Notes: generated by a model not told the origin, from the letters alone. Shown: positions 5,935-33,239, counted from the stretch's first letter. The stretch is 52,963 nt of DNA from a virus (IMGVR_UViG_3300049028_000001); one strand, 5' to 3'. Made by a program: numbers and translations.

Positions 5935-6025
5935 ATTTATATACACTATTAATTTATTTTAATAATGTATTTTACTTATTTATTTTATTAATCTATTTTA
6001 TTCATATACAATAATAGGAGTTCAA

Positions 6026-6346: not shown

Positions 6347-6434
6347 GCCGAACTCCGGTAGGAGAACAACGTGGTTCGGCCTCAAGAAGGGCCTTTAGAG
6401 CCCTTTAGAGCCATTTAAATAGCAAAGTGATAGC

Positions 6435-12657: not shown

Positions 12658-12982
12658 GCGACCCATATTAGAACTACCCAATTACACAAAACAGCCATCT
12701 AAAAAGACTCTCTTTGAAGAAGCACAGCGCCGGGATTTAATCGTCCGTAATATTGCTGCTAAGCTTACATATGGACCCGGGGATTGGGTAACACCGAATA
12801 AACCAGAGAGTGTCAATGAATATGGGGATCGCGTTAAGATTCTACGCATCTGTGATACCTATGGTAAGTTCGGTAAAGATGAAGTTTGGCCAGAGAGTGA
12901 CAATCCGATGATTGTCCATGCGTGGTCAGAAAAGCTTGATACTACATTCATGTGTACTGCTAATTTTCTAGTTAAGAAATGA
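12632..12982 (+). CDS. hypothetical protein
   Basis: 116-aa track ORF. Its stop overlaps the start of the amidotransferase gene (ATGA). Confidence 0.45.
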   Translation: MINILLPSKRPILELPNYTKQPSKKTLFEEAQRRDLIVRNIAAKLTYGPGDWVTPNKPESVNEYGDRVKILRICDTYGKFGKDEVWPESDNPMIVHAWSEKLDTTFMCTANFLVKK

Positions 12983-13629: not shown

Positions 13630-13667
13630 GGCGGATTCCGCCTAATAACAGTATTTGAGGATAAAAG

Positions 13668-14423
13668 ATGAGACTAGGTAGTGATCCAGAAGTGTTTCTA
13701 CAAGATCAGAGTGGGAAACACATCTCAGTTATCGGAATGATTGGTGCAGATAAGTGGAATCCTAAGCAGGTACCTGATATGCCTGAGGGGTTTACACTAC
13801 AGGAGGATAACGTATCGTTGGAGTTTGGTATTCCTCCTGCTCGTGACGCGGAGGAGTTTGCTAACAATATCGAATTGGTATTGAAGGCGGGTCTATCAAA
13901 CGTTAACGGCCTTCAGTTTAGTAAGCTTAGCTGTACGATCTTTCCTGAGGATCAGTTAGCTCATCCTATGGCATCGGTATTCGGCTGTGAACCAGACTTC
14001 AATGCATGGACAGGTTTAGAGAATCCACGCCCAACACCACCACATAAGGGTATGCGTAGTGCTGGGGGGCATGTACACATTGAGACTAAGGAGGATCCTC
14101 GTGTGGTTGTGCAAAATTGTGATGTGCACCTCGGGCTTGCTAGCGTTTTACTTGATGATGGTATTGAACGGAAGAAGGTTGGTTATGGAGCGGCTGGAGC
14201 GTTTCGCCCTAAACCTTATGGCGTTGAGTATCGGACTCTTTCTAATTTCTGGATTTTTAGTCCTAAGTTTTCCAAATGGATTTGGCGAGCTACTGAACGT
14301 GCGTTAGGTAATCTTCGGACATTTAACAACACCGAATCCGAATATATCCAGAAAGCTATCAATACGGGTAATCGTCGGATTGCCTCTGAACTAATTGAAT
14401 ATTTCCAGGTACTGATGCCATGA
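13668..14423 (+). CDS. phage COOH-NH2 ligase (glutamine-synthetase-fold, phiEco32-type) candidate
   Basis: GSDPEVFL at the N-terminus, LEFGIPP, GCEPDFNAW, AGGHVHIE and GVEYRTLSNFW resemble the phage type-2 COOH-NH2 ligase family recalled from comparative-genomics literature. Confidence 0.5.
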   Translation: MRLGSDPEVFLQDQSGKHISVIGMIGADKWNPKQVPDMPEGFTLQEDNVSLEFGIPPARDAEEFANNIELVLKAGLSNVNGLQFSKLSCTIFPEDQLAHPMASVFGCEPDFNAWTGLENPRPTPPHKGMRSAGGHVHIETKEDPRVVVQNCDVHLGLASVLLDDGIERKKVGYGAAGAFRPKPYGVEYRTLSNFWIFSPKFSKWIWRATERALGNLRTFNNTESEYIQKAINTGNRRIASELIEYFQVLMP

Positions 14424-14878
14424 AGATTCCTAAGCCGATTCTTGGATCTGCTCTTAAAGCCTACTTTATGGAGCATGTGAAGCCTATTCCCCAAGATACT
14501 CCCGGCTTCTATAGAGTAACCAGACCTCTTCACGTATTTAAGAGTACCCATCAATATAGGGATGGTGCTTTCTGTATTACTAATTTGATGATTCCTAAAG
14601 GGGCTTTTATTTATGCTCCTGATATCTGTTTCGCGGCTGGGCATCAGCCTAATGAGTATCATCATCGTAAGATGCGTGCCTCGTCGGCCTCTGTTCATTC
14701 TAACTTTACGAAAAGGACAAAGGAGAGAGTGCAGGAGGCTTCCTCTTGTTATTCTCCCATCTTTAAATATAAAGAAGGAACTAAGGTAAAGCCACAGATG
14801 CCTTTCTCTCATGAACCACATACTTGTGATTATGGAATCCATTTCTTTCTAAACCTTTACGATGCTTATAATTATTAA
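14420..14878 (+). CDS. hypothetical protein inside the ligase cassette
   Basis: 152 aa. ATGA coupling upstream, and the next ATG lies 3 nt after its stop. The 208-aa antisense track ORF is R/S/L-rich and judged a shadow. Confidence 0.45.
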   Translation: MKIPKPILGSALKAYFMEHVKPIPQDTPGFYRVTRPLHVFKSTHQYRDGAFCITNLMIPKGAFIYAPDICFAAGHQPNEYHHRKMRASSASVHSNFTKRTKERVQEASSCYSPIFKYKEGTKVKPQMPFSHEPHTCDYGIHFFLNLYDAYNY

Positions 14879-14880
14879 TC

Positions 14881-15480
14881 ATGTTTGTAGACTCTAATAA
14901 CTGGGACGACTGTAAGAAGTACTTTGAAGGTACTTGGGTTAAATTCAAAGAGGAGGGTGATAATACCATTTGGTATATCAATGAAGTAACCCCAAAACAT
15001 CTCTTTGCTAAAAGTGTAGATGAAAAGGAAATTATCGGGGTTGATCTAGAGATAGGATATACTCTCGATTATGTAATCCCAAAGAAGACAACTTATCAAT
15101 TACATGAGAGTGCTGTTAATCTTTCCAGGATTCCTGCAAGGCAATGGAAGAAGGGAATGAATAAACAGAATACCTTATTTCAAGTACTGACTGGAGACGG
15201 TATTTGGTTACCAGCACCATTCCAACCTGATGTAATTAATGGGTTTGTAAATAAACCGGGATATTACACTCCCCATGATGCACTCCGAGAATTCAAGGCT
15301 AGTGAACATCTCCGAAGCGCAGCCCTGAATCCGAGAATGTCCATTGCTAGGAATGGTACAATCTTTGTTGATACTGTGCTTGTCGCTAGGTTTGACGGGG
15401 AACGTTTGATCACGAAGAGTCTGTTTGTTCCTGAAATTTCGGCAATGTTCCCAGAATGGAAGATTAAGACAGTAAAATGA
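14881..15480 (+). CDS. hypothetical protein inside the ligase cassette
   Basis: 199-aa track ORF. Its stop overlaps the next start (ATGA). Confidence 0.5.
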   Translation: MFVDSNNWDDCKKYFEGTWVKFKEEGDNTIWYINEVTPKHLFAKSVDEKEIIGVDLEIGYTLDYVIPKKTTYQLHESAVNLSRIPARQWKKGMNKQNTLFQVLTGDGIWLPAPFQPDVINGFVNKPGYYTPHDALREFKASEHLRSAALNPRMSIARNGTIFVDTVLVARFDGERLITKSLFVPEISAMFPEWKIKTVK

Positions 15481-16283
15481 GCATGGAAGCTAAACCCGTA
15501 ATTGATATCAAAACTCACTTTGGATTACCAGTAAATTTTAAACTAAATAAATTTACTCCCAAACAGTTTGTGTGTGGGTGTGAGTTTGAGATTGAAAGTA
15601 TTCTGAATTGGGAGAATCTGGGAGGATTTGTATCAGTAGAAGAGGATCATTCTTTACGAAATAATGGTAAAGAATTCAAGACTCCTCCTGTAGGTTTTGA
15701 GTTGGCACTTGAAACTTTTAGGATTCTTCACGACAATATTAAGTTAGGACCGAATCCCTTTAGTGAGCGCACTTCTATTCATGTGCATGTAAATGTCCGT
15801 GACCTTTCCTTAAAGGACGTTCGCAATCTAATTCTAACGTATGCTCTACTAGAACCCCTGTTCTTTGAGTTTGCAGGAGAAACTCGTAAAGGCTCAATCT
15901 TCTGTGTACCTCTGAGTTATACATATCTACCTAGTCTATACAAGCATCCAATTACGATGCTTCTTGACAAGTGGAAGAATAATAAGTACACAGCATTTAA
16001 TCTGTTGCCTATTACTTCTTTTGGTACTGTGGAGTTTCGTCACCTTTATGGTACTGGTGATGAGCAAGTTTTTACAACGTGGTTAACTGCAATCAAAGAA
16101 CTATATGACTACGTTGTGAATCATCCCGAATTAGAAGTAACAGAACTTCTAAAGGAGCCTATTGCAAAAGTAGCCTTGGAAATTATTCCTTCACTAGCAA
16201 AGTTATATTCTGTTAATCGGATTACAGAACTAACACAGGATTCTGTAGTTGATATCAAACTGTCCAAAGGCGGGCTTAAATAA
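15477..16283 (+). CDS. Amidoligase_2-type putative amidoligase
   Basis: CGCEFEIES, EEDHSLRNNGKEFKTPP, TSIHVHVNV and GTVEFRHLYGT fit the putative amidoligase enzyme family pattern. Confidence 0.5.
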   Translation: MSMEAKPVIDIKTHFGLPVNFKLNKFTPKQFVCGCEFEIESILNWENLGGFVSVEEDHSLRNNGKEFKTPPVGFELALETFRILHDNIKLGPNPFSERTSIHVHVNVRDLSLKDVRNLILTYALLEPLFFEFAGETRKGSIFCVPLSYTYLPSLYKHPITMLLDKWKNNKYTAFNLLPITSFGTVEFRHLYGTGDEQVFTTWLTAIKELYDYVVNHPELEVTELLKEPIAKVALEIIPSLAKLYSVNRITELTQDSVVDIKLSKGGLK

Positions 16284-17435
16284 ATGTGTGGTCTTGTTGG
16301 AATGATTTTAAATACCACCAATGGACCAGTGTTTTCTGATGTTACAGCATTTGAAGAACTACTGTACATTGATGCATTGCGTGGTGAAGATTCAACTGGT
16401 GTAGCTGCTCTCTATAATAATGGAGATATGCAGGTCATTAAAGATTCCTGTGATGCTAATTACTTTCGATCCACCAAGGAATTTACAGACTTTAAACGGG
16501 ATTTTATTAGTAAAGGCCGTGTAGTATTAGGTCATAATCGAAAGAAGACTGTAGGAAAGATTGACCCTACAACCGCACATCCTTTTCTTATTAACGATCG
16601 CTTTGCTTTTACACATAACGGGACACTACACAACCACAAGAAACTAGCAAATACAGAAGTAGACAGTGAAGCTCTTGGTATTCATCTGACTGAATGTGAA
16701 GGAAGCCTAGTTAAGCTAGAGAAAGCTTTAGCAGAAGTAGAAGGTGCCTTTGCTTGTGCTTGGATCGATCAACAGACAGAAAAGGTATTCCTGTTACGGA
16801 ATACGGAACGGCCCTTGTATCTAGCTAAGACTCAGATTGGCTATATCTATGCTTCTGAGCCGGCTATGATTACCTTGGTGGCATTGCGTAATCGAATAAA
16901 AATCGATTCCATTGATCCTGTGGATACGGATACTTTATATACCTTCTCTCTCCCTAAAATCTATGGAGTAGATCTAACAAAAGATAAGCTGGTATACACA
17001 CCAAAAAAAGCCAAGCCCACTACGTACCATGGCAGCACCAAAGTAGTGGGCATGCATTCTACAGTGAAGGCTGCGAATAACTTTCTCAACTCTGATGTTT
17101 ACGGTACTAGCAAGAATGCCTTTAAAAGATTTCGTAATAAGAATCTTGGGAAGGTTGTTCCCTTCTATGTAGAAGACTTCGTAGAGAAGAACTACCCACA
17201 AAACGATGGAGACTGGCTACTCTTTGGTAAATGTGATTCTCTAGAAGTAAATCATATGGTTTGTGGTGTAGTTAAAAACGCAACCATGTATGCTATTGAA
17301 GAAGATTACATGAACCATTTAGCATATGGTCAGATCTTGAATGTTGAATATGATGAGATTTCTAAGTTGGTTAAGATTTCAGTTGGATCAATAACACTAG
17401 CAAAACCCCATGAAGCTGCGCTTACTAAGCACTAA
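16284..17435 (+). CDS. class II (Ntn) glutamine amidotransferase with a C-terminal domain of unknown function
   Basis: N-terminal MCGLVG with the nucleophile Cys at position 2. RGEDSTGVA, GHNRKKT and FTHNGTL are typical of the GATase-2 fold. About 170 extra C-terminal residues are unassigned. Confidence 0.65.
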   Translation: MCGLVGMILNTTNGPVFSDVTAFEELLYIDALRGEDSTGVAALYNNGDMQVIKDSCDANYFRSTKEFTDFKRDFISKGRVVLGHNRKKTVGKIDPTTAHPFLINDRFAFTHNGTLHNHKKLANTEVDSEALGIHLTECEGSLVKLEKALAEVEGAFACAWIDQQTEKVFLLRNTERPLYLAKTQIGYIYASEPAMITLVALRNRIKIDSIDPVDTDTLYTFSLPKIYGVDLTKDKLVYTPKKAKPTTYHGSTKVVGMHSTVKAANNFLNSDVYGTSKNAFKRFRNKNLGKVVPFYVEDFVEKNYPQNDGDWLLFGKCDSLEVNHMVCGVVKNATMYAIEEDYMNHLAYGQILNVEYDEISKLVKISVGSITLAKPHEAALTKH

Positions 17436-18096
17436 ACTAAAGTCACAGTCTTTAAAGAGACTGGCACAGGGTCTATCAACAGCGCTGGGCTATAAGGTCT
17501 GGCGTAGTTCTAAGCCAAAGCCTAATCGAAAGCATCTATTGTATGGTGACCAAATCTGTAAGATTGAACAGTATAAATGGTTTAAGCAGGAAGCAATTCC
17601 TAGCCTTGAGTTCACATTATCACAGGGAGAAGCACAAGAATGGGCTAAAGTGGCACCTGTGGTATGTAGAAAACTTACCAGGGCATCAGAAGGCAAGGGA
17701 ATTGTTATCGCAGAGTCGCCAGAACAAGTGGTGGTGGCTCCTGTGTATACGAAATATCGCAAAAAGAAGAAGGAATACAGGGTTCATGTGTTCAAGGGCA
17801 CGATCGTGCATGTACTAGAAAAGCGGAAACGTAAAGGTGTGGACGTTACTGAAACGAAAGTACGTAACACGGCTAATGGCTACGTCTTCTGCTCTGAGAA
17901 TGTTGTGGAGCCTGAAGGATTACGGGAACTAGCTCTAGCCGCTTCTAAGGTAACTAAGTCAGATTTTAAAGGGGTAGATATCGGCTACAATGAAAAGAAG
18001 AATGAGCTGTTTGTTATCGAAGTTAACTCTGCTCCTGGTATTGAAGGTTCTAACGTAGATCGATATGTCCAGGTCATCAAAGCAAACCTCTTCTGA
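17410..18096 (+). CDS. ATP-grasp family ligase candidate
   Basis: 228 aa. A K-rich central region (YTKYRKKKKEYRVHVF) and a C-terminal FVIEVNSAPG(I) resemble ATP-grasp core strands. It is adjacent to the amidoligases. Confidence 0.5.
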   Translation: MKLRLLSTKLKSQSLKRLAQGLSTALGYKVWRSSKPKPNRKHLLYGDQICKIEQYKWFKQEAIPSLEFTLSQGEAQEWAKVAPVVCRKLTRASEGKGIVIAESPEQVVVAPVYTKYRKKKKEYRVHVFKGTIVHVLEKRKRKGVDVTETKVRNTANGYVFCSENVVEPEGLRELALAASKVTKSDFKGVDIGYNEKKNELFVIEVNSAPGIEGSNVDRYVQVIKANLF

Positions 18097-19676: not shown

Positions 19677-20400
19677 TTACTTCAGGTTTCATACAAACTG
19701 TCCTAATTGCGGTTCAAGTGACGCTAGGGCTGTTTATGCTAGCGGTAGTAGCTTTTGCTTTAGTTGCCATAGGTTCAGCTCTGGGAACGTTTCTCCATAC
19801 GCTGTTCAAGAAACTGTTAGGGAAACTAAGGAAGTAGTTCTACCAGATGATGTTGGGTTTAATTATTCTCCTGAATGCTTAGAGTGGGTAAGTAAATATG
19901 GACTATCAACAAACGAACTTATCGAACGACGAGTCCTCTGGTCAGACTACAGACAACAACTCATCTTTACCTGGTATGATCAATCGGATAACCTTCTCCT
20001 GTGGCAAGCTCGTAACTTTAAACCCGGTGCTAAGAAATACTTTACCCGAGGAGTACCAGATGAATGTCTTCCCATTTACTACCATCGAAGTCCTACCGAA
20101 GGACAATCACTGGTAATTGTAGAAGACTGCATCAGTGCTATTAAAATAGCCCATATAAGCGATTCTATGCCTGTGCTGGGGTCAGATATCAACCGAGCTA
20201 AGTTATCGCGTCTACGGGCCTATTACGGGCCTTCCTGCCGGGTTGTGGTTTGGCTGGATGGAAACATGTACCACAAAGCCCAGCGAATTGCCCAGCGGAT
20301 GAACATGCTGGGGATGGATGCTAGGGCTGTTTACTCTGACTTAGACCCTAAGTGCTATAGTGATGAAGAAATTCGTAAAAAGGTGTTGACAAGTGACTAG
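19666..20400 (+). CDS. DNA primase (T7 gp4 N-terminal type: zinc ribbon plus TOPRIM)
   Basis: CPNCGSS...CFSCH zinc ribbon. TOPRIM Glu in LVIVEDCISAIK and an acidic motif in VVVWLDGNM. Confidence 0.75.
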   Translation: MTIDYFRFHTNCPNCGSSDARAVYASGSSFCFSCHRFSSGNVSPYAVQETVRETKEVVLPDDVGFNYSPECLEWVSKYGLSTNELIERRVLWSDYRQQLIFTWYDQSDNLLLWQARNFKPGAKKYFTRGVPDECLPIYYHRSPTEGQSLVIVEDCISAIKIAHISDSMPVLGSDINRAKLSRLRAYYGPSCRVVVWLDGNMYHKAQRIAQRMNMLGMDARAVYSDLDPKCYSDEEIRKKVLTSD

Positions 20401-20415
20401 AAAGTGTGGTATACT
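20386..20415 (+). promoter_or_regulatory. sigma70-type promoter overlapping the primase stop
   Basis: TTGACA (20386..20391), 18-nt spacer, TATACT (20410..20415), with an extended -10 TGG. Confidence 0.6.
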
Positions 20416-20421
20416 AGATGT

Positions 20422-20660
20422 ATAGGCTGGAATTTTATCGGTGAGGTACGTTGTTATCCAGCCACGCCTTCAAAAGAAGGCTCTCGCACAAACAAGATAC
20501 AGGTGCAAACGTGGGCAAGCCTAGAGCGTGTAGGGACACCACTATATGTGGTCGGACGAATAGTCTAGGGCTGATTGGAACTTCAGGGTGATACCTAAGT
20601 CTTCAAGCTGGTTTATACTCGTAATTGGGTAGGGACTAGGCTTGAAGAAATTTCTTAGGG
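20422..20660 (+). ncRNA. candidate structured non-coding RNA / long structured 5' leader
   Basis: No ORF on either strand. Hairpins are GGCTGGA/TCCAGCC (20425-31/20457-63), GCCTTC-aaaa-GAAGGC (20466-81), CCTAGA/TCTAGG (20520-25/20564-69), and a long helix CCTAAG-t-CTTCAAGC / GCTTGAAG-aaattt-CTTAGG (20594-20608/20640-20659). Confidence 0.4.
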
Positions 20661-20672
20661 TGATATATAATT

Positions 20673-21026
20673 ATGGAATATATTAAAGATCAATTATACG
20701 TAGCTTTTAATAAGCAAGCAGATTATACTTACTACTATAAGTATTTAGGAAATGATCAGTGGACAGGTGGCTGGATTGATCCCATAAAGGTAGCTAAGGA
20801 TACTGTACCTACTTGGAATACATCAGATCTACATGTATTGGGTACTGCTACCAAACACGATCCGAAGTTAACCGAAGAACTACAAAAATTATTCAGAGCT
20901 GAACTTCCTATGAATGGTATGGTAAAGAAACTGGTAAACCTTGAGTTCACGTGGGAGTTTAACGAAGTTAAGCCAAAGAAGCTTCCTCCTAACATTCGTA
21001 TTATCAATAAACGAAATGACATTTGA
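20673..21026 (+). CDS. hypothetical protein ending in K-rich ...NIRIIN motif
   Basis: 117-aa track ORF. C-terminus KPKKLPPNIRIINKRNDI. Confidence 0.5.
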   Translation: MEYIKDQLYVAFNKQADYTYYYKYLGNDQWTGGWIDPIKVAKDTVPTWNTSDLHVLGTATKHDPKLTEELQKLFRAELPMNGMVKKLVNLEFTWEFNEVKPKKLPPNIRIINKRNDI

Positions 21027-21201
21027 AGAATTCATGGTCCTAGAACACGGACTACTAAAAAATCCTACTTTAGGTAAATCCTGGACAGCGTACCTTGAAC
21101 GAAAAGAAAATGAATATGCTTTAAGGTATTGGAAAGAGAGGTATAAAGAAGCCCTAAATAAGAAACCTATTCGTATAATTAATGCAAAGAAACCATCATG
21201 A
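21016..21201 (+). CDS. hypothetical protein (MTFEEFM...KKPIRIINAKKPS)
   Basis: ATG at 21016 in the frame of track ORF 20941..21201. Its N- and C-termini parallel the next ORF. Confidence 0.45.
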   Translation: MTFEEFMVLEHGLLKNPTLGKSWTAYLERKENEYALRYWKERYKEALNKKPIRIINAKKPS

Positions 21202-21464
21202 CATTCAATGAATATATGAATGAGACTTTAGGGGGTCCTATTGGATTTCCCTTTGGCACATGGGATAACTGGCTTGCCCACCATAAGGAACACTCTGATC
21301 TAGGAAACAGCTTTTATTATGCACAGGTATGTGTTAAACATGTACAAGAATATTTAAAGAAATGTCAAGAAAAGGGTATACAACCTATTCCTATTAATAA
21401 AGAAAAGAAGAGTATCAGAATAATTAATGCACCACGAACTATCGATAATCAAAGCATTTCTTAA
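21198..21464 (+). CDS. hypothetical protein (MTFNEYM...KKSIRIINAPR...)
   Basis: 88-aa track ORF with ATGA coupling. It shares the MTF.E.M start and the K-rich IRIINA end with ORF 21016..21201. Confidence 0.5.
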   Translation: MTFNEYMNETLGGPIGFPFGTWDNWLAHHKEHSDLGNSFYYAQVCVKHVQEYLKKCQEKGIQPIPINKEKKSIRIINAPRTIDNQSIS

Positions 21465-22659
21465 ATATGAAGTCTGGCTTAGTTATCAAGAGTGCCTAAC
21501 AGCTACTGATTTTCCAGAGGATCTACAGCTACTCTATCGTACTCTGGATAGCTTCCATAAAACTAACGACTCCAAGCAGGATCTACACCTTCTAGACCTA
21601 AGTAATCTGTTCTTCAGTAACCGACCGAAAGACAGGGAGTTCTACGAAGGTGTATTCAAGACTCTCGATTCGTACGAACCTAATTACGAGACAGTAAAAC
21701 AATTAATCCTATCGATTAAAAGAGCAAAGACTCTTAGAGAAATTAGTATTGCCAGCTACGAAGTAGCAGAAGGCAAAAAAGAGTTTGATAAGCTAGCTCC
21801 CCTGCTAGCCTCACTCAGCGAAGAACAAGACCAAGGTAGTGAGCAAACCGACGAGTTCGTCACAGACGATCTAGAAACACTCGTCAATAAAGTTTATCTG
21901 ACTCCCGGCCTACGTTGGCGTTTAAATACGCTAAATCGAATGCTAGGCTCATTGCGTAAAGGTAACTTCGGTTTCCTATTCGCTCGTCCTGAGACAGGTA
22001 AAACCACCTTCCTTGCATCTGAAGTTAGTTTCATGGCTGAACAGGTCAAAGGGCCTATTCTCTGGTTTAACAATGAAGAAGTACATGAGAATGTAAAGCT
22101 ACGGATTATCCAAGCTAGTTTAGGTATTAGTACTGAAGAGATTCTCAGTAATGTAGCTCGGTATCAGAAGGAGTTCCTAGAGCGTACTAAAGGTCATATA
22201 AAAATGCCTTCAATGGCATCATTCAATAAAAGTGATATCGAACGTCTATGTAAGAAATACCAACCTAGTCTTATTGTGCTTGATCAAATAGATAAGATCC
22301 AAGGGTTTGCTGCTGACAGAGAAGACCTGATGTTAGGTGCGGTCTATCAATGGGCACGAGAGTTAGCAAAGTTATATTGTCCTGTAATCGCTGTATGCCA
22401 AGCGGATGCTACTGGAGAGAACACTAAATGGTTAACGATGAATAACGTAGCCAATGCAAAGACTGCTAAGCAAGCAGAAGCAGATTGGATTCTTGGTATC
22501 GGTAAGATCCATGATACCGGATGGGAGAAGATCCGATTTCTACATCTATCTAAGAATAAGCTAACAGGAGATAAGGATACTGAAGCAGAGCTTCGCCATG
22601 GTAAACTAGAATGTCTTATCGAACCACAAATTGCTAGGTATGCAGATATAAAGAGATGA
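21427..22659 (+). CDS. DnaB/T7 gp4-like replicative helicase
   Basis: Walker A GFLFARPETGKTTFLAS and Walker B LIVLDQIDK, followed by VIAVCQAD and a RecA-like core. Confidence 0.8.
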   Translation: MHHELSIIKAFLKYEVWLSYQECLTATDFPEDLQLLYRTLDSFHKTNDSKQDLHLLDLSNLFFSNRPKDREFYEGVFKTLDSYEPNYETVKQLILSIKRAKTLREISIASYEVAEGKKEFDKLAPLLASLSEEQDQGSEQTDEFVTDDLETLVNKVYLTPGLRWRLNTLNRMLGSLRKGNFGFLFARPETGKTTFLASEVSFMAEQVKGPILWFNNEEVHENVKLRIIQASLGISTEEILSNVARYQKEFLERTKGHIKMPSMASFNKSDIERLCKKYQPSLIVLDQIDKIQGFAADREDLMLGAVYQWARELAKLYCPVIAVCQADATGENTKWLTMNNVANAKTAKQAEADWILGIGKIHDTGWEKIRFLHLSKNKLTGDKDTEAELRHGKLECLIEPQIARYADIKR

Positions 22660-22835
22660 AGCATCCAAAGAATAGAACTACAATATATGTGATTATCCGC
22701 TTAGCCTATAACAATCCTGTTATCCTTGATTCCTTTAGAACTTATGAAAGAGCAGAAGAAGTTCTAGGCATCTATCAAAAAGATAAACCTGAATACGAAT
22801 ACGAAATAATGGCGAGTACATACTACAATGAGTAA
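22656..22835 (+). CDS. small hypothetical protein (59 aa)
   Basis: ATGA overlap with the helicase stop. MKHPKNRTTIYVIIRLAYNNPVILDSFRTYERAEEVLGIYQKDKPEYEYEIMASTYYNE. Confidence 0.4.
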   Translation: MKHPKNRTTIYVIIRLAYNNPVILDSFRTYERAEEVLGIYQKDKPEYEYEIMASTYYNE

Positions 22836-22977
22836 AATGACTGAGATTTCTGAAGAAAGATATGAATACCTTCTAGAGAGAGATGCTTGGCTTGATGCCT
22901 TGGAGCAAGCAGGGGTAGATAATTGGGAAGGTTACGACGAAGCACTTGAGATTTACAATGCTTTTAATGCAGAATAA
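22828..22977 (+). CDS. small hypothetical protein (49 aa)
   Basis: MSKMTEISEERYEYLLERDAWLDALEQAGVDNWEGYDEALEIYNAFNAE. It overlaps both neighbours. Confidence 0.35.
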   Translation: MSKMTEISEERYEYLLERDAWLDALEQAGVDNWEGYDEALEIYNAFNAE

Positions 22978-23242
22978 ATATGAATGTCACATCACTACTT
23001 TTACTAGTAGTGCAGAAGTAGCTACAGAAGTGGCTAAAGAACTCCACTGGAAAACGTCAGAGATTGCACGAGATCCTGTACTAGGTAATGATACATATTT
23101 CTATTTAACTAGTCATAGTGATTCATATGATCGTATGTGGGAACGTATGGTAGAAGCAGTAAATTTACTAGAACTTAAGGGCTGTAAAGTAGTTCGAGAA
23201 AAAATTGAGCATATCGTCTATGACCGACGTTATAACCTCTGA
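22967..23242 (+). CDS. hypothetical protein
   Basis: In-frame ATG at 22967 within the track ORF from 22946. MQNKYECHITTF... Confidence 0.45.
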   Translation: MQNKYECHITTFTSSAEVATEVAKELHWKTSEIARDPVLGNDTYFYLTSHSDSYDRMWERMVEAVNLLELKGCKVVREKIEHIVYDRRYNL

Positions 23243-24359
23243 CTGGGAAGTAACAACACACAATATAGGCTCTCCATTTGATCCACGTAACAAAGCAGTT
23301 TGCTTAGGTATTAAAGAGGACAACAATGATACTTACTGTCTTAACTTTCTTGAGTATCAGAATTTAACTGCATTGAATACCAAGCTACAAGATAAACTAC
23401 TGGTATTCTTCAATGCTAAGTTCGACGTGCATTGGTATCGAAGGCTAGGTCTATCAAGTGTGCTGGAAAGTAAGATATGGTGTTGTCAGGTAGCTGAGTT
23501 TGTATTAGAGGGACAAACTAAACCATATCCAAGCCTTGAGAATACTGCTGTTAAGTACGGCTTAGGACATAAGATCGATGTAATCAAAGAAGAGTATTGG
23601 AGTAAGGGAATCAATACTGATGAGATTCCTACCCAAGTTCTTCATGAGTACTGTATCCAAGACGTAAATCTTACCTACCAGATTTATCTCAAACAACTAG
23701 AGCAATTTCAAAAGAGTCCTAAGCTCTTTGTACTATTCAAATTGATGTGTCAGGATCTGCTGGTCTTGGAGGAAATGGAATGGAATGGCTTGATATGTGA
23801 TGAGGAGTTGTGTAATCAGCGAGCGGAGGAATTAGATAAAGAAATACAACAAATCAGAGAACAACTATCTAACGTATATCCTGACATTCCCATTAACTTT
23901 GGTAGTAACGATCAGCTTAGTGCTTTCCTATACGGTGGTAAAATCCCTAGAAAAGTTAGCAAGCATGTAGGATTTTATAAGAACGGTAAACCTAAATATA
24001 AACTCGAAGATGAGCCTTGGGTACTACCACGATTAGTAGAGCCCATCAAGGGTTCAGAGATGCAAAAAGAAGGTGTGTATGCGACAGATGAAGCTACTTT
24101 ACGAAAGCTTAAAGGTCCGGCTGCAACTAAGTTTGTTGGTCCTTTACTTAGGTTGGCTGAACTTGAGAAACTATGTTCGACGTACTATCGAGGACTTCCT
24201 AAAATTATTGAAGAAATGAATTGGTCTAAAGGAGAGATCCACGGTAACTTCAATCAAGTAGTTGCAGCTACAGGGCGTCTGAGTAGCACAAAACCTAATC
24301 AACAGAACTTCAGTAGTGATTGTTTAGACGTCTTCATTTCGAGGTATAAGGATGGATGA
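23205..24359 (+). CDS. family A DNA polymerase, N-terminal part (3'-5' exonuclease plus thumb; ends just before motif A)
   Basis: Exo motifs SDWEV, FFNAKFDVHW and HEYCIQDVNLTY. Pre-motif-A TGRLSSTKPNQQNF. The ORF stops at ...FISRYKDG-TGA. The likely start is the ATG at 23220. Confidence 0.8.
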   Translation: MSISSMTDVITSDWEVTTHNIGSPFDPRNKAVCLGIKEDNNDTYCLNFLEYQNLTALNTKLQDKLLVFFNAKFDVHWYRRLGLSSVLESKIWCCQVAEFVLEGQTKPYPSLENTAVKYGLGHKIDVIKEEYWSKGINTDEIPTQVLHEYCIQDVNLTYQIYLKQLEQFQKSPKLFVLFKLMCQDLLVLEEMEWNGLICDEELCNQRAEELDKEIQQIREQLSNVYPDIPINFGSNDQLSAFLYGGKIPRKVSKHVGFYKNGKPKYKLEDEPWVLPRLVEPIKGSEMQKEGVYATDEATLRKLKGPAATKFVGPLLRLAELEKLCSTYYRGLPKIIEEMNWSKGEIHGNFNQVVAATGRLSSTKPNQQNFSSDCLDVFISRYKDG

Positions 24360-24507
24360 AATTGACGACTATATCTTTGCTTTAATGGAATTGGCTGCTT
24401 TACTTCAAACAGTAGGTCCCAGCAAGCTATTAAACGATTTCAAGCAACAATATCCTAAAGAGTATCAACAGCTTGTTTTAGGAGTCTTGGAGGAATTACC
24501 CAAGTGA
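24352..24507 (+). CDS. mini-ORF a inside the polymerase gap (51 aa)
   Basis: MDEIDDYIFALMELAALLQTVGPSKLLNDFKQQYPKEYQQLVLGVLEELPK. Its ATG overlaps the end of the Pol-N ORF and its stop overlaps the GTG of mini-ORF b. Confidence 0.3.
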   Translation: MDEIDDYIFALMELAALLQTVGPSKLLNDFKQQYPKEYQQLVLGVLEELPK

Positions 24508-24656
24508 CATTTGAAGAGTGGTATAAAACTTTAGGAACGGCGGGTAAGAATCAAAATCCCTTTGGAGATTGGTTTGTTGCTATGCAAGAGGCTTATAAAA
24601 AAGGATTTGAAGAGGGTAAGAGAGAAAGTGAGGGCGCCGATGTTAGTGCAAGCTGA
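24504..24656 (+). CDS. mini-ORF b inside the polymerase gap (50 aa)
   Basis: VTFEEWYKTLGTAGKNQNPFGDWFVAMQEAYKKGFEEGKRESEGADVSAS. GTGA coupling to ORF a. Confidence 0.3.
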   Translation: MTFEEWYKTLGTAGKNQNPFGDWFVAMQEAYKKGFEEGKRESEGADVSAS

Positions 24657-25379
24657 CGCGGCGCAACTTTAGAGTGGCGTACTGCGGTAGAACTGAGTAA
24701 TGATGAGGTAGGTCTAGCTGAGATATTAGAGAAACAGGATACGCACAGCCTCAACCAAGTTGCGTTCCAGTTACCATCTAGACTCATTGCTAAGATCTAT
24801 TTGTTTCGTACTATCTTCCGTGGTTCCGGTTGGAGCTTTGCTAATGATCCAAAATTTACTCACGTATCTAGTGATCCTAAATACTGGGATAAGGTAAACG
24901 AGAAATTCTATGCCAAGTACCATGGCTTAGATAAACAACATAAAGTGTGGGCTGACTTAGTAGTCCAAGGAAAGCCTATTGTAGGCCCTTTAGGGCGATT
25001 TTGGCCCATTGATATGGGTACGGACTACCGAGGTAATTTAAAGATCCCATGGACCGTTCTAAGCAATTACCCAGTACAGGGGACTGGGGCCGACGTGATG
25101 ACTATTGCACGTATATCCTTCTTCAATCGTATGAAGAAGTTGGGATTGTTTCAAAAGGGCGTGTTGCTAGTCTCATCAGTGCACGACAGTATTGTAGTGG
25201 ATGCCCCCGAAGAGCTCATTCAGGACATTACGAACCTTTTCCATCAGGTGTTCGATGCGTTGCAGATGAATATCTACAAGGTGTTCGGATATGAATGGCG
25301 AGTACCACTCGCTTGTGAGGTAAAGTATGGACCTAATATGAAATCAATGACAAAGATTGAGAGGACAGATGACATATAA
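24640..25379 (+). CDS. family A DNA polymerase, C-terminal part (motifs A, B, C); reading frame broken after codon 10
   Basis: GAGGG ribosome-binding site 5 nt before the ATG at 24640, giving MLVQADAAQL then TAG (24670..24672). The frame starting at 24672 continues EWRTAVELS...DTHSLNQVAF..RLIAKIYLFRTIFRG (motif B)...VSSVHDSIVVD (motif C). The track calls only 24801..25379. Confidence 0.7.
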
Positions 25380-25569
25380 CTGGCTAGAACATTTAGAAAC
25401 GCTACAGCGTATGGCAGATGAAGGTGAGTCGATATCTTCTATTGCCAAGTCTTTTGGGTTATCCCGTGAACGGGTACGACAGGTGTTTAAGAAGTATGGT
25501 CTTAAACCTAGTTCAAATCCCAAGAGACAAACGACTAATCGACCTACCCACTATAATAAAAAGACTTGA
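25369..25569 (+). CDS. small HTH protein resembling sigma-70 region 4
   Basis: GESISSIAKSFGLSRERVRQVFKKYG is a region-4/LuxR-like helix-turn-helix. The ATG at 25369 has a GAGAGGA ribosome-binding site. Confidence 0.45.
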   Translation: MTYNWLEHLETLQRMADEGESISSIAKSFGLSRERVRQVFKKYGLKPSSNPKRQTTNRPTHYNKKT

Positions 25570-25796
25570 CTTTTGATATGGATTCGGGTAAAATATTAAG
25601 TATAGACTACAGATTATGTTATCAATTTGTCTATTTTAATCGTAACTATTTTAACGATGATATACCAAAACTGCTAACAAAATATGTTGAAGCAGTGGAT
25701 GCGTCAAATCATCATGTACAAACAATCAGAGAACTAAAGAAATCAATCGTGATTCTCGAAGCTGAGAATCGTTTACTCAAGGAGAGCGTTAGTTGA
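25566..25796 (+). CDS. hypothetical protein
   Basis: 76 aa. TTGA start/stop overlap upstream and downstream. C-terminal coiled-coil-like segment. Confidence 0.4.
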   Translation: MTFDMDSGKILSIDYRLCYQFVYFNRNYFNDDIPKLLTKYVEAVDASNHHVQTIRELKKSIVILEAENRLLKESVS

Positions 25797-26338
25797 ACTT
25801 TTCAATTCAGGTAGTACAAGTAGACAAGCAATTCAAGCCAACCGATAAGGGAGGCTATACCCAACTAGAGGTAGCCTTTAAGAACCTCAGTACGGGTAAG
25901 CTAGAGAGTAAGAAGTTAATGAGCTTCACCAAGCCTGAGGGTGTGTATAAAGCCCTAGTGGATGCAAAGCAAGGTGATACCTTCAATATCACCAGTAACA
26001 AGAATGAGAAGTCAGGATACTGGGACTGGGTAGCAGCTACTCAAGGAGCACCAGATCTTCCACAGCAACAACCAACTAAAACTACTGGTATGGGAAATGC
26101 CTCACCTAAAAGCACCTACGAGACCCCCGAAGAACGTGCAAAGAAGCAAGTGTACATTGTCCGTCAGTCTAGTATTAGTAATGCTATCGAGCTTCTTAGT
26201 GTGGGTGCTAAGGCACCCCCTAAGCTAGAAGATGTACTGAAGGTAGCTCAGGATTTTACTGACTTTGTATTCCAACAACAGAAGGAAGATGTATTCAATC
26301 TTCCTAATGATCTTCCACAGGATGTAGAGGTAGAATGA
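25793..26338 (+). CDS. putative ssDNA-binding protein
   Basis: 181 aa positioned between the polymerase and exonuclease genes. It has an OB-like N-terminal half, a P/Q-rich linker and an acidic C-terminal tail (DLPQDVEVE). Assigned by position and architecture only. Confidence 0.4.
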   Translation: MNFSIQVVQVDKQFKPTDKGGYTQLEVAFKNLSTGKLESKKLMSFTKPEGVYKALVDAKQGDTFNITSNKNEKSGYWDWVAATQGAPDLPQQQPTKTTGMGNASPKSTYETPEERAKKQVYIVRQSSISNAIELLSVGAKAPPKLEDVLKVAQDFTDFVFQQQKEDVFNLPNDLPQDVEVE

Positions 26339-26496
26339 TGTATAAGATTATGCGAACTGGTCGTCGGTTTAATACCAAGAGTTATCCAACCTACGAAGAA
26401 GCTCGTAAGGCAGTACGGCGTACTGTAACAAAGCTACTTGGTGGATATGCAGATTCTTTTGGCAGTTTGGGATTCTCTATTCAGAAGATTAAGTGA
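26335..26496 (+). CDS. small basic hypothetical protein (53 aa)
   Basis: MMYKIMRTGRRFNTKSYPTYEEARKAVRRT... ATGA and GTGA overlaps with the neighbours. Confidence 0.4.
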   Translation: MMYKIMRTGRRFNTKSYPTYEEARKAVRRTVTKLLGGYADSFGSLGFSIQKIK

Positions 26497-27242
26497 GAGA
26501 GCTTGCGTTAGTAGATGGGGATATAGTCTGTTACAGATGTGCAGCAACTGCTGAAAACGATCCCGTTGAAGTAGCTGAAGTACGGGTAGATGAATTAATG
26601 AGACGAATCCTTCATGAAACGGATGCTTTGACTTATAAGGCATTCTTAACAGGTAAGGATAACTTTCGTAAGACCCTCTATCCAGAGTACAAAGCGAATC
26701 GTAAAGATAAGCCCAGACCCATCTGGCTACAGGCATGTAGAGATCATCTGATTAAATACTGGAATGCTGTTGTAGTAGATGGTCGAGAAGCAGATGATGA
26801 ACTGGGTATTGAACAAACAGCACACGAATTAGATTCGATTATCTGCTCGATAGATAAGGATCTTTTACAGATTCCTGGATATCATTATAATTTCGTAAAG
26901 AGTGAGCAGCTATTCGTATCGCCTTACGATGGATTACGAAATTTCTACGCTCAGGTAATCACTGGAGACGCCTCTGATTATATCCCAGCATTCGATGGTA
27001 AGTTTCGAACGAGTATACCGAAGTTTGTACAGAAGCTTCTCGATCCCCTATGGGAAATGACTGAAGAGTTGGATATGTACAATCATGCTTTACAGGTGTG
27101 GCTAGACCATTCCTTTAGAGATGGATATGATATTGTCTTGGATGTGCAAACCTATGCAAAGTGTTTATGGATTATGAGAAAGGAAGGTGAGTATTGGCGC
27201 GTACCAGAAGAAAAAGAGACGGACCATATAAATCAAGACTAG
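26493..27242 (+). CDS. T7 gp6-like 5'-3' exonuclease (FEN/PIN fold)
   Basis: VDGDIVCYR, EYKANRK, GREADDELG, CSIDKDLLQIP and ITGDASDYIP parallel T7 gp6 segments MDGDWLVFQ, NYKANRK, EGDDVMG, SCDKDFKTIP and IKGDITDGYSG. Confidence 0.75.
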   Translation: MRELALVDGDIVCYRCAATAENDPVEVAEVRVDELMRRILHETDALTYKAFLTGKDNFRKTLYPEYKANRKDKPRPIWLQACRDHLIKYWNAVVVDGREADDELGIEQTAHELDSIICSIDKDLLQIPGYHYNFVKSEQLFVSPYDGLRNFYAQVITGDASDYIPAFDGKFRTSIPKFVQKLLDPLWEMTEELDMYNHALQVWLDHSFRDGYDIVLDVQTYAKCLWIMRKEGEYWRVPEEKETDHINQD

Positions 27243-27607
27243 AGGATAAGATAGCTGCTGTATTAAAGCACGCTAAACAAGAAGTCAAGTATGAAAAAGA
27301 CAAACTCAAGTATACCGTCGAGCACACCTATAACCCTGACTTTACCTTGGGTAGCAATACCTACATTGAAGGTAAGGGATTGTTTAAAGCCGCTGACAGG
27401 GCTAAACACTTATACATTAAATCACAGCATCCAGAAGTCAAAATCTTTTTCGTCTTTGGTAATCCATACAATCGGCTTAGTAAGGTGTCAAAAACTACTT
27501 ATGCCGAATGGGCAGATAAGCACGGATACCAATGGTGCTCGATTGAAGATTTCAGCAAGTCTAAAGTAAAACAGTGGCTTGATTCCATAAAGGAGAATGG
27601 TAATTAA
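27194..27607 (+). CDS. T7 endonuclease I-like Holliday-junction resolvase
   Basis: YKSRLEDKIAAVL, HTYNPDF and IEGKGLFKAADRAKHLYIKSQHPEVKIFFVF match T7 gp3 segments FRSGLEDKVSKQL, HTYTPDF and VETKGLWESDDRKKHLLIREQHPELDIRIVF. Confidence 0.8.
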   Translation: MARTRRKRDGPYKSRLEDKIAAVLKHAKQEVKYEKDKLKYTVEHTYNPDFTLGSNTYIEGKGLFKAADRAKHLYIKSQHPEVKIFFVFGNPYNRLSKVSKTTYAEWADKHGYQWCSIEDFSKSKVKQWLDSIKENGN

Positions 27608-30085: not shown

Positions 30086-30677
30086 TTGGGAGTATCTATA
30101 TGACAATCACGATGGTCATGGTTTTGGAACCCTGTCTGTAAAAGATCAGAAGCTAATCAACTACCTAGCTACTCATAATCACTGGACTCCTTTTGCTCAC
30201 GCCTTTATGTCGTTCCGAATAAAGGCTCCTATCTTTGTTGCTCGTCAGTTGGTTAAGCATCAGGTAGGCTTGGTATGGAATGAGGTATCTCGAAGATATG
30301 TTGACGACGAGCCTGAATTCTGGTTTCCTATGGAATGGCGGGGAAAACCAGTAAATGCTAAACAGGGTAGTTCAGGTGATGCCCCTCCATATGCATACTC
30401 ACTAGGTATGGAAAAAGTTCTAATTCCTGTATTAGAACAATATAATTGGATGATTGAAACAGGAGTAGCACCCGAACAAGCTCGTATGGTACTACCACTT
30501 AACTGTTTAACGGAATGGATCTGGAGTGGTAGTTTAGTTGCCTTTGCTCGGGTATGTAAACTACGCCTCGATCCGCACGCACAACTTGAATGCCAAGAAG
30601 TAGCAAAGAAGATCTATGACTTGGTTCCAGATGATTTCGAGCACTCATGGAGTGCACTAATGGGAGAAACAAAATAA
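29988..30677 (+). CDS. thyX: ThyX-like flavin-dependent thymidylate synthase homolog (atypical signature)
   Basis: TAAGGAG ribosome-binding site 10 nt before the ATG at 29988. [45 protein letters not shown] and [11 protein letters not shown] align with T. maritima ThyX. The canonical RHR is KHQ here. Confidence 0.7.
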   Translation: [229 protein letters not shown]

Positions 30678-31362
30678 CTGATTTTAATACAGATTTACAA
30701 ACTTACGTATACAAGTCTCGATATGCTAAATGGCTAGAATCGGAAGGTCGTCGAGAGAGTTGGAAGGAGACGGTAACGCGATACTGTGACTTCTTCCAGA
30801 AACGATTCCCTGAGACTTTTCCATATAATGATATTTGGAATGCTATCTACAATCTAGATGTTGTCCCTTCAATGCGGGCTCTGATGACAGCAGGCCCTGC
30901 CTTAGAGCGAGATAATATTGCTGGATATAATTGTAGTTACATTCCGATTATTGATATCCGCTGTTTCGATGAAATCATGTATATCCTGATGTGCGGTACA
31001 GGAGTAGGTTATAGTGTAGAAAGGCAATATGTCAGCAGGCTACCGGACGTGGCAGAGACTTTACATGAAACAGGATCTACAATTCACGTTGCAGATTCTA
31101 AAACAGGGTGGGCCGCAGCATTTCGACAACTCATCTCTCTACTATATGCGGGGCAGATTCCTAAATGGGACACCAGCAAGATCCGACCCGCTGGAGCTAG
31201 ACTTAAAACGTTTGGAGGAAGAGCTTCAGGACCTGGACCCCTGGAAGAGTTATTTACCTTCACGGTTTCCTTATTTAAAAAAGCTGCTGGACGGAAACTT
31301 AATTCAGTCGAAGTTTCTGATCTTGTCTGTAAGACGGCAGAGGTTGTGGTTGTGGGAGGAGT
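30647..31362 (+). CDS. nrdJ: class II ribonucleotide reductase, exon 1
   Basis: VPSMRALMTAGP...GYNCSY...CGTGVGYSV...TFGGRASGPGPL...AEVVVVGGV. The ORF then runs into intron sequence and stops at 31381. Confidence 0.7.
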
Positions 31363-32243
31363 AGAGCCTAAGAAATACTAAGGCTCTCGATTTGAACTGA
31401 AAGGAGAAATCATGGAAAGCTTTAGCGAGTACACAGTTCGTAAACAAAAATTTCGTTATTTAGATTTCAATAAGATTGACAATAAAGACTTAGCCTATGT
31501 ATGTGGTTATCTAGCAGGTGATGGGGCTTTCCTAGCAAATGCTGGTTATCCAAAGTTGTCTTTAAGCTCTGTTGATAAGCATATCATTGAAGCTTTTAAA
31601 GCTTATCTTTGTCCAGATACCTCTATTCAATATGTAGGTAAACATAGTACAGAGAGAGTTAAAGCAGTTAATGATATTTGGAGTATTAATCTTTCTATGA
31701 AAGTGTCTCAGGCATTTAAGCCTTTTGGTATTTTCTGTTATAAGAAAGACCGACGAGTAATAGGCATTCCTAACCATCTCTTTATTCATTACTTCCATGG
31801 GGTAATGGATGCAGACGGCTTTATTGGAATAACTGTTAGACGAGACTGTCGTTTACCTAGAGTGCGGATTTTTATCACTCATGAGAGTGAAAAGTTTCTA
31901 GTAGATTTACAAAATAAACTAGATGAACTTTTTGAGATTCCCTCTACTATTAGACAACATGGTACAGGCTGTTATCGTCTTCAATTACAACATACAGAAA
32001 AGAATAAACTGTTTTTAGATATGTTATATAGTGATACTCCTTTTGTATATTCTAGACAACGAGAAAATGTTTACAGAAATCGTCTAGCTCCAGACGTTGG
32101 GTTAATTGCTGGAAAGCGAAAGCCAATCAGCAGCCAAGCAGTAAGTATACTTGCTGAAGGTTCAGAGACTACCTGAGAAGTATAATCTTCTTAATAACAG
32201 GAAAGAACGCCCAAAACAGAAATGTTAAGATATAGTCCAACAG
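31363..32243 (+). mobile_element. group I intron 1 in RNR gene (carries LAGLIDADG ORF)
   Basis: The 5' exon ends in T (..ggagt) and the intron ends in G (..caacag). The conserved J8/7-P7 element aagatatagtcc lies at 32227..32238. Splicing restores GGV-RRSALICLSNLTDERM in frame. Confidence 0.6.
31412..32176 (+). CDS. LAGLIDADG homing endonuclease (double-motif)
   Basis: LAYVCGYLAGDGAF and YFHGVMDADGFIG are two LAGLIDADG motifs about 100 aa apart. GGAG ribosome-binding site before the ATG. Confidence 0.8.
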   Translation: MESFSEYTVRKQKFRYLDFNKIDNKDLAYVCGYLAGDGAFLANAGYPKLSLSSVDKHIIEAFKAYLCPDTSIQYVGKHSTERVKAVNDIWSINLSMKVSQAFKPFGIFCYKKDRRVIGIPNHLFIHYFHGVMDADGFIGITVRRDCRLPRVRIFITHESEKFLVDLQNKLDELFEIPSTIRQHGTGCYRLQLQHTEKNKLFLDMLYSDTPFVYSRQRENVYRNRLAPDVGLIAGKRKPISSQAVSILAEGSETT

Positions 32244-32556
32244 TAGACGGAGTGCTCTTATCTGTCTTAGTAATCTTACGGACGAGAGGATGCGTAACTA
32301 CAAAAATGGGCAGTGGTGGGTAGATGAGAAACAACGAGCTTTAGCTAACATCTCTGCTGCGTATACTGAGAAGCCAGATATCGGTATTTTCATGAAAGAG
32401 TGGCAAGCACTATATGAATCAAAATCAGGAGAGCGTGGAATCTTTAATCGAGTTTCTGCACGTAAACAGGCAGAAGCTTGTGGACGTAGAGACACAAATC
32501 ATGATTTCGGCACGAACCCTTGCGGGGAAATCATACTCCGACCTTTCGGCTATTGT
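32244..32556 (+). CDS. nrdJ: class II ribonucleotide reductase, exon 2
   Basis: (V)RRSALICLSNLTDERMRNYKNGQWW...SGERGIFNR...TNPCGEIILRPFGYC, which includes the active-site NPCGEI loop. Confidence 0.7.
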
Positions 32557-33239
32557 TAATTAATAGCAACTTCATACAGTAATGTATGTCGAAACCGTGT
32601 GAATTCAGGGGAAGACCAGACCGGTTAATCCTGACCCAAGTTAAATCGGGGGCAACGACTAGAGCGAAAGCTCGTACACTCAAGTGAGTGGAAGCGCACG
32701 GCCCCGTCCACATAGAAGACGGGTGAAGATATAGTCTGAGCTATATAGGAATATATAGGAGGGAATTTGAGAAATAGACAAGGTTATTTTGTTAGTGATA
32801 ATGGTATGCGTGAGTGTACTGGTTGTGGAATTATTTTTCCTCAGACTAGTAAAATGACCTTGTGCAAATCATGTAATAGTTCAAGAGTAAAAAGTATGAC
32901 TCCAGAGTGGAAAATGCACCAGCGCGCTAAACAGCGTGCTAAATTCTGTGGTATGGAGTTCGATATAGAAGTTGAAGATATTATAATCCCAGATACCTGC
33001 CCTATTTTGGGCATTTCTTTAAATATGAATTCAGGTAGGTCTGGTGCTTATAAAAACTCTCCTTCTTTAGATCGGATTAATAATTCTCTTGGATATATTA
33101 AAGGTAATATTTGGGTGATCTCTCAACAAGCAAATGCCATGAAAGGCGCAGCAAGTGTGGAAGATCTACAGAAATTTGCTGATTGGATTAATTCTCAATA
33201 TCCCCGGCAGGAAGTAACGACTCCTGTTGAACATAACTG
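32557..33239 (+). mobile_element. group I intron 2 in RNR gene (carries HNH ORF)
   Basis: The 5' exon ends in T (tgt) and the intron ends in G (..aactg). gaagatatagtct lies at 32725..32737 after a G+C-rich structured core (32570..32720). Splicing gives FGYC-NLSEVIV in frame. Confidence 0.6.

Follow-up and report, generated by a model that had tools for sequence, protein, structure and literature searches.

We found that the catalytic motif A of a phage DNA polymerase is split by a genuine, heritable insertion of two nucleotides. The insertion, TA at 24670..24671 on the plus strand of IMGVR_UViG_3300049028_000001 (the window hereafter, that is, the whole 52,963-nt stretch of viral DNA that was analysed), occurs close to the 5′ end of a gene that is the downstream partner in a pair; the pair encodes the only family A DNA polymerase of the phage. 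The comparative evidence favours the reading that a net +2 recoding event at CUU-UAG would restore the motif, and ribosomes would probably have to skip this gap, and its counterparts in related phages, to make an active polymerase. At the DNA level, we hold with high confidence that the gap is real, that it belongs to a family of such gaps and that the family is linked to endonuclease cassettes.

The frame that opens with ATG at 24640..24642 continues TTA GTG CAA GCT GAC GCG GCG CAA CTT and closes at TAG 24670..24672, and our re-reading of the sequence confirms the MLVQADAAQL peptide and stop described in an earlier note on this DNA. These 10 codons (24640..24669), the mini-exon, are the first of the polymerase C-part and include the catalytic Asp of motif A (GAC, 24655..24657). 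The same note placed the remainder of the polymerase in the frame beginning at 24672, and there EWRTAVELS... indeed runs without a stop until 25379 (235 codons, or an intact ORF of 234 codons when counted from the W codon). This C-part body (24672..25379, plus strand) extends through motifs B and C to its stop, matches PF00476 positions 166-379 and is in the +2 frame relative to the mini-exon; its frame is closed upstream by TGA at 24654..24656 and has no ATG, GTG or TTG before 24801. Between the two pieces lies the 2-nt gap TA, which forms the 0-frame stop TAG with the G at 24672 and the proposed re-pairing triplet UUA with the T at 24669, immediately after the proposed take-off codon CUU (Leu, 24667..24669).

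With 24670..24671 left out, the DAAQLEWR of the earlier note is reproduced, and only then is the motif A spacing D-x4-E-x-R satisfied in a chain contiguous with motifs B and C. Over motif A the joined protein aligns without gaps with solved family A polymerases, including Taq (LLVALDYSQIELR), 8jrb (FVIADFSQIELR) and Klenow, and the D and E of the motif are invariant across 22 diverse relatives. A −1 shift does add a residue, as had been claimed, giving DAAQLLEWR. Reassignment or read-through of either stop codon was rejected on the frames: past TAG the frame goes on SGVLR* and meets further stops, again as had been claimed, and past the TGA at 24654 the D-E spacing is wrong. The antisense track that the note cited for the presence of the TA also stands, since the minus-strand ORF at 24593..24787 includes ...AVRHSKVAPRQ....

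The polymerase gene has a second break, 283 nt upstream, and the enzyme is thus encoded as two genes, with Pfam PF00476 spanning both parts. The N-part (23205..24359, plus strand), which probably starts at ATG 23220, comprises a 3′-5′ exonuclease (PF01612) and the N-terminal part of the polymerase domain (PF00476 positions 52-132) and ends ...CLDVFISRYKDG*, with its stop after ...SRYKDG. Because hundreds of N-part homologues of ~375 aa terminate at the identical point, the two-gene split is conserved in a large clade, and unsplit homologues read continuously ...SRY-xxG-xxVQADAxxLEW. Two polymerase ORFs are annotated in the Alcaligenes phage vB_Af_QDWS535, a cultured clade member, and in the cultured OM43 phages MEP401 and MEP402 (PMC10580990). 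The N-part and EWR share one frame, and the sole out-of-register stretch is the 30-nt MLVQADAAQL segment. We rejected a group I intron, whether at the TA or in the interval that separates the polymerase parts (no RF00028 match in 23000-26000 at E values up to 10, with a model that finds two introns elsewhere in the window and one in L001; the ORFs in the interval, moreover, are variable), and this, together with the conserved split, makes the mini-exon the true 5′ end of the second gene. An intein or split intein was rejected as well, the N-part ending at a stop and the intervening ORFs lying in other frames with no Hint/intein Pfam match.

Between the two genes lie a small ORF of 51 aa (24352..24507, plus strand), kept in close relatives, and another of 50 aa (24504..24656, plus strand), which overlaps the leader and the mini-exon in a different frame and has a partial homologue in locus L001; Pfam and PHROG searches matched neither to any family, endonucleases included. 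The leader itself (GAAAGTGAGGGCGCCG, 24624..24639, plus strand) is directly 5′ of the C-part start codon. Two N-part homologues, P0032 (525 aa) and P0045 (518 aa), carry an extra C-terminal extension of ~140 aa after ...FI(S/T)R(Y/F), possibly a fusion with an inserted gene.

The TA is found in three identical independent assemblies, the JGI contig and two Logan assemblies from different runs: SRR35217776 is 100% identical to window 20220..27359 and SRR35215807 to window 20220..24790, with the TA included in both. The N-part protein is present on seven contigs and the shortened 192-aa ORF on 10. An exact 127-nt direct repeat at the window ends (1..127 and 52837..52963) indicates a circularly closed assembly, and the true genome length of ~52,836 nt agrees with Logan contigs of 52,866 nt. 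The pattern GAYGC-N4-CAR-CTT-TA-GAG-TGG-MG occurs in three IMG/VR and four JGI metagenome contigs, and CAR-CTT-TA-GAG-TGG is exact in eight lineages (the window counted) whose C-parts are mutually just 57-93% identical. A nucleotide search of GenBank phages gave no match, nor did an exact 30-mer of the window in IMG/VR. The earlier note had proposed comparison with related genomes as a check on the TA, and its absence from them as a refutation. The comparison gives both outcomes: the dinucleotide is shared by the eight lineages, some of them distant, and is absent in L003, L004 and L007. Relatives that lack the TA are therefore not decisive, as some close relatives are without it and others, including distant ones, have it.

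The TA is one member of a catalogue of gaps at this site. The IMG/VR survey covered 80 loci, ~76 of them scorable for a motif A gap, and 16 of these are gapped; among the best 120 clusters of C-part homologues, the N-terminus is aberrant and without the Asp in ~17. Overall, a short motif A gap is present in ~20% of relatives. We distinguish 15 types of 1-10 nt, always between the Q, L, E and W codons of DAxQLEWR. With the gap written between hyphens, those after the Leu codon CTT include CTT-T-GAG, CTT-TA-GAG, CTT-TAACTT-GAA, CTT-TAGCTT-GAA and CTT-TAGCCC-GAR, those after Gln include CAG-TAGCGG-CTA, CAA-AGGTCAA-CTA and CAA-ATATGCAG-CTT, and those after Glu include GAA-ATACGAC-TGG and GAA-TAGCTACGAT-TGG. 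L016 reads CUU UAA CUU and L039 CUU UAG CUU, and the sister allele in L075 and L076 reads CUU UGA G and needs +1. Among close relatives, the gene is uninterrupted and starts MLIQADAAQLEWR in one frame in L003 (83% identical) and L004 (78%), and the closest relatives, L001 and L002 (N-part 93% identical), have the 7-nt gap GAA-ATACGAC-TGG, three bases downstream of the gap position in the window. In L028, L043 and L078 (CTT-TAG(A)CCC-GAR) the landing triplet CCC is identical to the take-off codon at one position only, as is GTA in L011 (GAG-TGTA-TGG).

Gaps go together with homing endonucleases. Two HNH-type families lie 5′ of the mini-exon, HE1 (PHROG 374, E = 4e-65) and HE2 (PHROG 3322 and 1035, E = 3e-30), and one or the other is found, whole or as a remnant, directly upstream in 11 gapped lineages vs none of 60 intact loci. 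Two mini-exon copies are found in L001 and L006: one, diverged and belonging to the host, flanks the cassette, and the other, which hardly varies, is part of the cassette and precedes the gap. HE1 lies at 4758-5267 in L001 and HE2 at 1979-2491 in L012, where the HE2 ORF begins with a host mini-exon copy, MLIQCDAS. The window keeps only the leader, mini-exon and gap, and the endonuclease gene is absent. Its leader resembles that of TA- and T-type gap alleles and the HE2 cassette 3′ end, and is nearly identical to the L096 leader; when cassette 3′ ends are aligned, TA- and T-type alleles prove to have the HE2 end in common, and in L099, which is of TA type, the C-terminal remnant of an HE2 gene lies directly upstream. 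Loci with full HE2 read CTT-TAG-CCC-GAG, four bases different from the CTT-TA-GAG of the window.

The gap alleles are mobile patches, since genome pairs that are 95-98% identical differ solely by a replaced patch that ends 8-45 nt past the gap (L098 vs L062, L096 vs L025, L083 vs L029 and L016 vs L013). For L001 and L006 we considered, and rejected, that the complete HE1 cassette is spliced out so as to join host copy 1 to the W codon, as this would yield DASQFKEWR, with an extra residue, from a junction that is not clean. The sequence facts of the earlier note, and recoding as one of its options, survive this analysis; the two-gene split, the gap hotspot and the HNH cassettes are what it had missed.

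Other interruptions and mobile genes were seen in these phages. Between the polymerase genes of L013, L014, L016, L067 and L077 there is a member of a third HNH family (193 aa, HNH_3-like), which is located 400-1000 nt 5′ of the C-part in intact as well as gapped loci and, unlike HE1 and HE2, has no tie to the gap. L001, and likewise L002, has a second C-part interruption at ...NYPV|QGTGADV (5692..6440 in L001), which contains an HNH_3 ORF (6015..6374) and resembles a group I intron (RF00028 at E = 3e-5, which does not reach the gathering score); L093 and L095 probably share this interruption, and their downstream ORF ends at that position, 141 codons in. In the window the class II ribonucleotide reductase region (30647..32758) is fragmented, with an N-terminal fragment ORF (30647..31381) and a LAGLIDADG endonuclease ORF (31412..32176); two group I introns in the region exceed the gathering score of Rfam (32043..32250, 58 bits; 32547..32758, 84 bits), and the remaining part of the RNR gene was not located. 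Elsewhere, 12979..18096 holds an amidoligase-type cluster with Peptidase_C26/GATase, a phiEco32-like COOH-NH2 ligase, Amidoligase_2, a class II glutamine amidotransferase and a RimK-like ATP-grasp protein, an arrangement that some phages are known to carry.

Both sides of the gap behave as coding sequence, in different frames. The downstream ORF is full length (225-235 codons) in every gapped locus except L001 and L002, where it is broken by the separate group I intron, and L009, which is cut by the locus end. The C-part dN/dS is 0.065 against L003 and 0.065-0.13 wherever it is measurable, that is, not saturated, and across eight TA-type lineages the mini-exon has a pN/pS of 0.15 in its own frame vs 1.7 and 5.0 in the other two. 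The dN/dS values and the lack of added stops or frameshifts in gapped loci speak against a pseudogene, although the age of some alleles may be slight: with horizontal exchange of gap alleles, and with intact relatives that are nearly identical to them, the lack of decay and the coding-like variation may in part reflect recent transfer. In the TA-type locus L097 (Ga0181563_10077076) a stop occurs 45 codons past the W codon, ~135 nt after the TA site, which suggests another insertion, or a lesion, ahead of motif B.

The gap sequences also have features expected of recoding sites. A stop occupies the 0-frame A site after the take-off codon in 9 of 15 gap types (P about 4e-9), the landing triplet is identical to the take-off codon at two or more of three positions in 10 of 13 types (P about 2e-6), and CTT is the Leu codon in all nine lineages gapped after Leu vs 11 of 51 intact alleles (22%; P about 1e-5), P values that are optimistic because gap types were treated as independent though some are related. 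AUA or AGG is the A-site codon in three of the remaining six types, and perfect matches of take-off and landing include CUU UAA CUU, CUU UAG CUU and CAA AGGU CAA. The Shine-Dalgarno match is much stronger in gap alleles (6.3 nt) than in intact ones (3.8 nt; P = 4e-9, subject to the same optimism); that of the window is weak (4 nt), unlike most gap alleles. Just 5′ of CUU in the window (GCGGCGCAA) there is no Shine-Dalgarno-like stimulator, and no conserved or significant RNA structure was found at the site (window z-scores −1.8 and +0.8); the L049 site folds well (z = −3.1), whereas the window and other alleles do not. SnoRNA-like Rfam matches at 24670-24724 have E values of 2.5-9 and were dismissed as chance. 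A search of the window for tRNA genes that might encode a suppressor or unusual tRNA found none.

Building on these observations, we propose that the TA is the vestige of a homing-endonuclease cassette, analogous to T4 mobA/gene 60. We read the gaps as the 3′ ends of small mobile cassettes. A cassette runs from an HNH endonuclease gene through a strong ribosome-binding site and a substitute for the initial ~10 codons to the gap itself; the endonuclease gene has often decayed or been lost, as in the window. The gap would spoil the endonuclease target in the conserved DNA of motif A and so shield its carrier from cleavage, and gap alleles would then spread as repair templates. In translation, the ribosome is predicted to stall with peptidyl-tRNA-Leu on CUU (24667..24669) and UAG waiting in the A site; the tRNA would re-pair two bases forward on UUA (24669..24671) and decoding would resume at GAG 24672, giving a product, MLVQADAAQL-EWR..., of the same length as in ungapped relatives, with the predicted junction peptide MLVQADAAQLEWR. 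What speaks against the +2 step is that CUU to UUA is an imperfect move for tRNA-Leu(GAG), in which two of three positions pair and one is a G-U wobble. Spontaneous shifts of this kind in E. coli, studied by Weiss et al. in 1987, are reportedly ~1% efficient, and an essential polymerase seems to need more than that; the short recoding sites may be efficient because they are only ~10 codons past initiation. We favour this complete account, a cassette-derived gap decoded by a +2 shift from CUU to UUA over UAG, with moderate confidence. Its extension to the clade we regard as evenly balanced: the phages may possess a repertoire of natural, very short recoding sites in polymerase motif A (+1, +2, in-frame stop-hops and hops of 4-10 nt) that would serve as immunity patches against at least two HNH homing-endonuclease families.

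The main rival to +2 decoding is that the gapped C-part is dead and the TA a selfish or neutral scar, with complementation by co-infecting relatives or by another polymerase. We consider this unlikely. It gains from the horizontal exchange of gap alleles, which often have intact relatives 95-98% identical to them and so may be young, and from the fact that neither a stimulatory signal for the shift nor a cultured phage carrying a motif A gap was found. No second lesion, however, has arisen over ~230 codons in any of ~20 gapped lineages, the mini-exon peptide is kept among TA-type patches that have diverged by ~35%, and the gap sequences are strongly non-random in ways relevant to translation only. 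The genome is moreover complete and repeatedly recovered, and neither a second PolA or C-part copy nor any other DNA polymerase was found among its 28 larger ORFs or by tblastn.

A frame restoration that alters the protein is improbable, whether by a −1 shift or by re-initiation without the first 10 residues. The −1 shift likewise reaches the EWR frame and UUA is a Leu codon, but it would add a residue between the Asp and Glu, whose D-x4-E spacing is invariant in split and unsplit relatives, it finds no slippery heptamer, and it cannot explain gap types with an in-frame stop (CTT TAA CTT; GAA TAG ... with 10 nt); re-initiation, for which no start codon is available before 24801, would yield a C-part devoid of the catalytic Asp. 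Slightly less probable still is that the TA is removed or ignored before translation, by RNA editing, splicing, transcriptional slippage or a DNA subpopulation. The genuine group I introns of this genome do indicate that RNA-level repair of interrupted genes occurs in it. Against such removal at the TA, no Rfam family is found in window 23000-26000 at E<1 and none at the gathering score, gaps of 1-10 nt are too small for a ribozyme, and the run of just three T bases is too short for slippage; we know of no RNA editing system of such a kind in phages. A sequencing or assembly artefact, which the earlier note had listed as an option, draws on the general prior that 2-nt indels can be errors and on nothing else, and the identical JGI and Logan assemblies, with CTT-TA-GAG in seven other diverged contigs from several metagenomes, have effectively refuted it already.

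To our knowledge, T4 gene 60 with its homologues has been nearly the sole basis for utilised translational bypassing in phages, and we know of short stop-hops and +2 shifts only from engineered constructs. Full-text searches of incomplete coverage gave the gene 60 work and a note on split polymerases in OM43 phages but nothing on PolA motif A gaps or their endonuclease link, and this amounts to no more than an absence of evidence. Endonuclease cassettes that carry an untranslated gap have a precedent, from which the present ones depart in the gene that is hit, in their endonuclease families and in the kind of gap. If the clade-wide reading is true, these phages would provide a second, independent and far more diverse counterpart of T4 gene 60, and in them a +2 shift and stop-hops would be in natural use for the first time in a bacterial system. 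Decoding of the gaps would make them ~15 natural, compact and evolutionarily related test sequences, which could reveal what a ribosome needs to skip 1-10 bases without a long stimulatory element, and they would show that the arms race with homing endonucleases can force recoding even upon the catalytic motif that an essential enzyme conserves most. Gene callers truncate the gapped polymerases (here to a 192-aa 'hypothetical protein'), and surveys of PolA motifs therefore misread about one-fifth of the clade.

Several known systems share features with this site. In Aeromonas phage Aeh1, an endonuclease insertion (mobE) splits the essential gene nrdA and both parts, each translated on its own, are functional (Friedrich et al. 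2007, as cited in 10.1101/2022.08.31.505936); unlike the C-part of the window, the downstream part, as described there, has no frame-breaking gap. The byps of Magnusiomyces capitatus mitochondria are GC-rich mobile inserts of 27-55 nt in many genes (Lang et al. 2014, as summarised in PMC5009743). As portrayed in that summary, they too are numerous, short and located in essential genes; their take-off and landing codons match, the codon in the A site is slow or not used, and translation corrects them, as is proposed here. They are scattered over the mitochondrion, whereas the gaps described here are of 1-10 nt, at one site, endonuclease-linked and in phages.

Also related are the synthetic 'shifty stops' and 'stop-hops' of E. 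coli, engineered and of low efficiency, among which +2 events were observed (Weiss et al. 1987, as reviewed in PMC5009743). In these, as proposed here, the peptidyl-tRNA re-pairs on a matching codon past a slow A-site codon. L016 and L039 have textbook stop-hop arrangements that, unlike the engineered constructs, are natural and in an essential gene; natural in-frame stop-hops were not known to a 2016 review of recoding (PMC5009743). The likeness to prfB (RF2) drawn by the earlier note extends to a CUU followed by a stop and no further, as the window has UAG rather than UGA, would need +2 rather than +1, and has no counterpart of the internal Shine-Dalgarno stimulator that prfB has 3 nt upstream. 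The L075/L076 allele, CUU UGA G, needs +1 as does the CUU UGA C of prfB, but again without an internal Shine-Dalgarno. The prfB site is autoregulatory; that of the window has no autoregulatory logic and is a mobile-element scar.

The precedent for the cassette architecture is T4 mobA/gene 60, whose cassette combines an HNH homing endonuclease with a 50-nt bypass (Bonocora et al. 2011, as cited in 10.1101/2022.08.31.505936); the MobA element consists of the endonuclease, a homologous replacement segment and a bypass cassette that ends at the landing codon, and the endonuclease is often lost (10.1101/2022.08.31.505936; PMC5009743). In both systems an essential enzyme gene is in two halves. An HNH endonuclease gene lies between the halves in T4 and, whole or as a remnant, in 11 gapped relatives of the window, TA-type L099 included, but in neither the window itself nor any intact allele. 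In both systems, too, a replacement for deleted host codons ('HomR') precedes a non-coding gap close to the start of the downstream gene, the end of the cassette coincides with the landing codon or falls just past it, a stop follows the take-off codon, and the endonuclease is frequently decayed or lost while the gap is kept. The window shares the arrangement at the codon level, with UAG straight after the take-off CUU and a landing UUA that overlaps CUU and would pair with the Leu tRNA via G-U. The systems differ in the gene affected (a topoisomerase in T4, motif A of a family A DNA polymerase here), in the endonucleases (MobA vs HE1 and HE2, which are set apart by their PHROG matches) and in gap length (50 nt in gene 60, 20 in one clade, vs 1-10 nt). 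The take-off stem-loop of gene 60 has no counterpart here, and its nascent-peptide signal cannot apply to a nascent chain of ~10 residues. Where gene 60 makes a long hop, the window would need only an overlapping +2 re-pairing.
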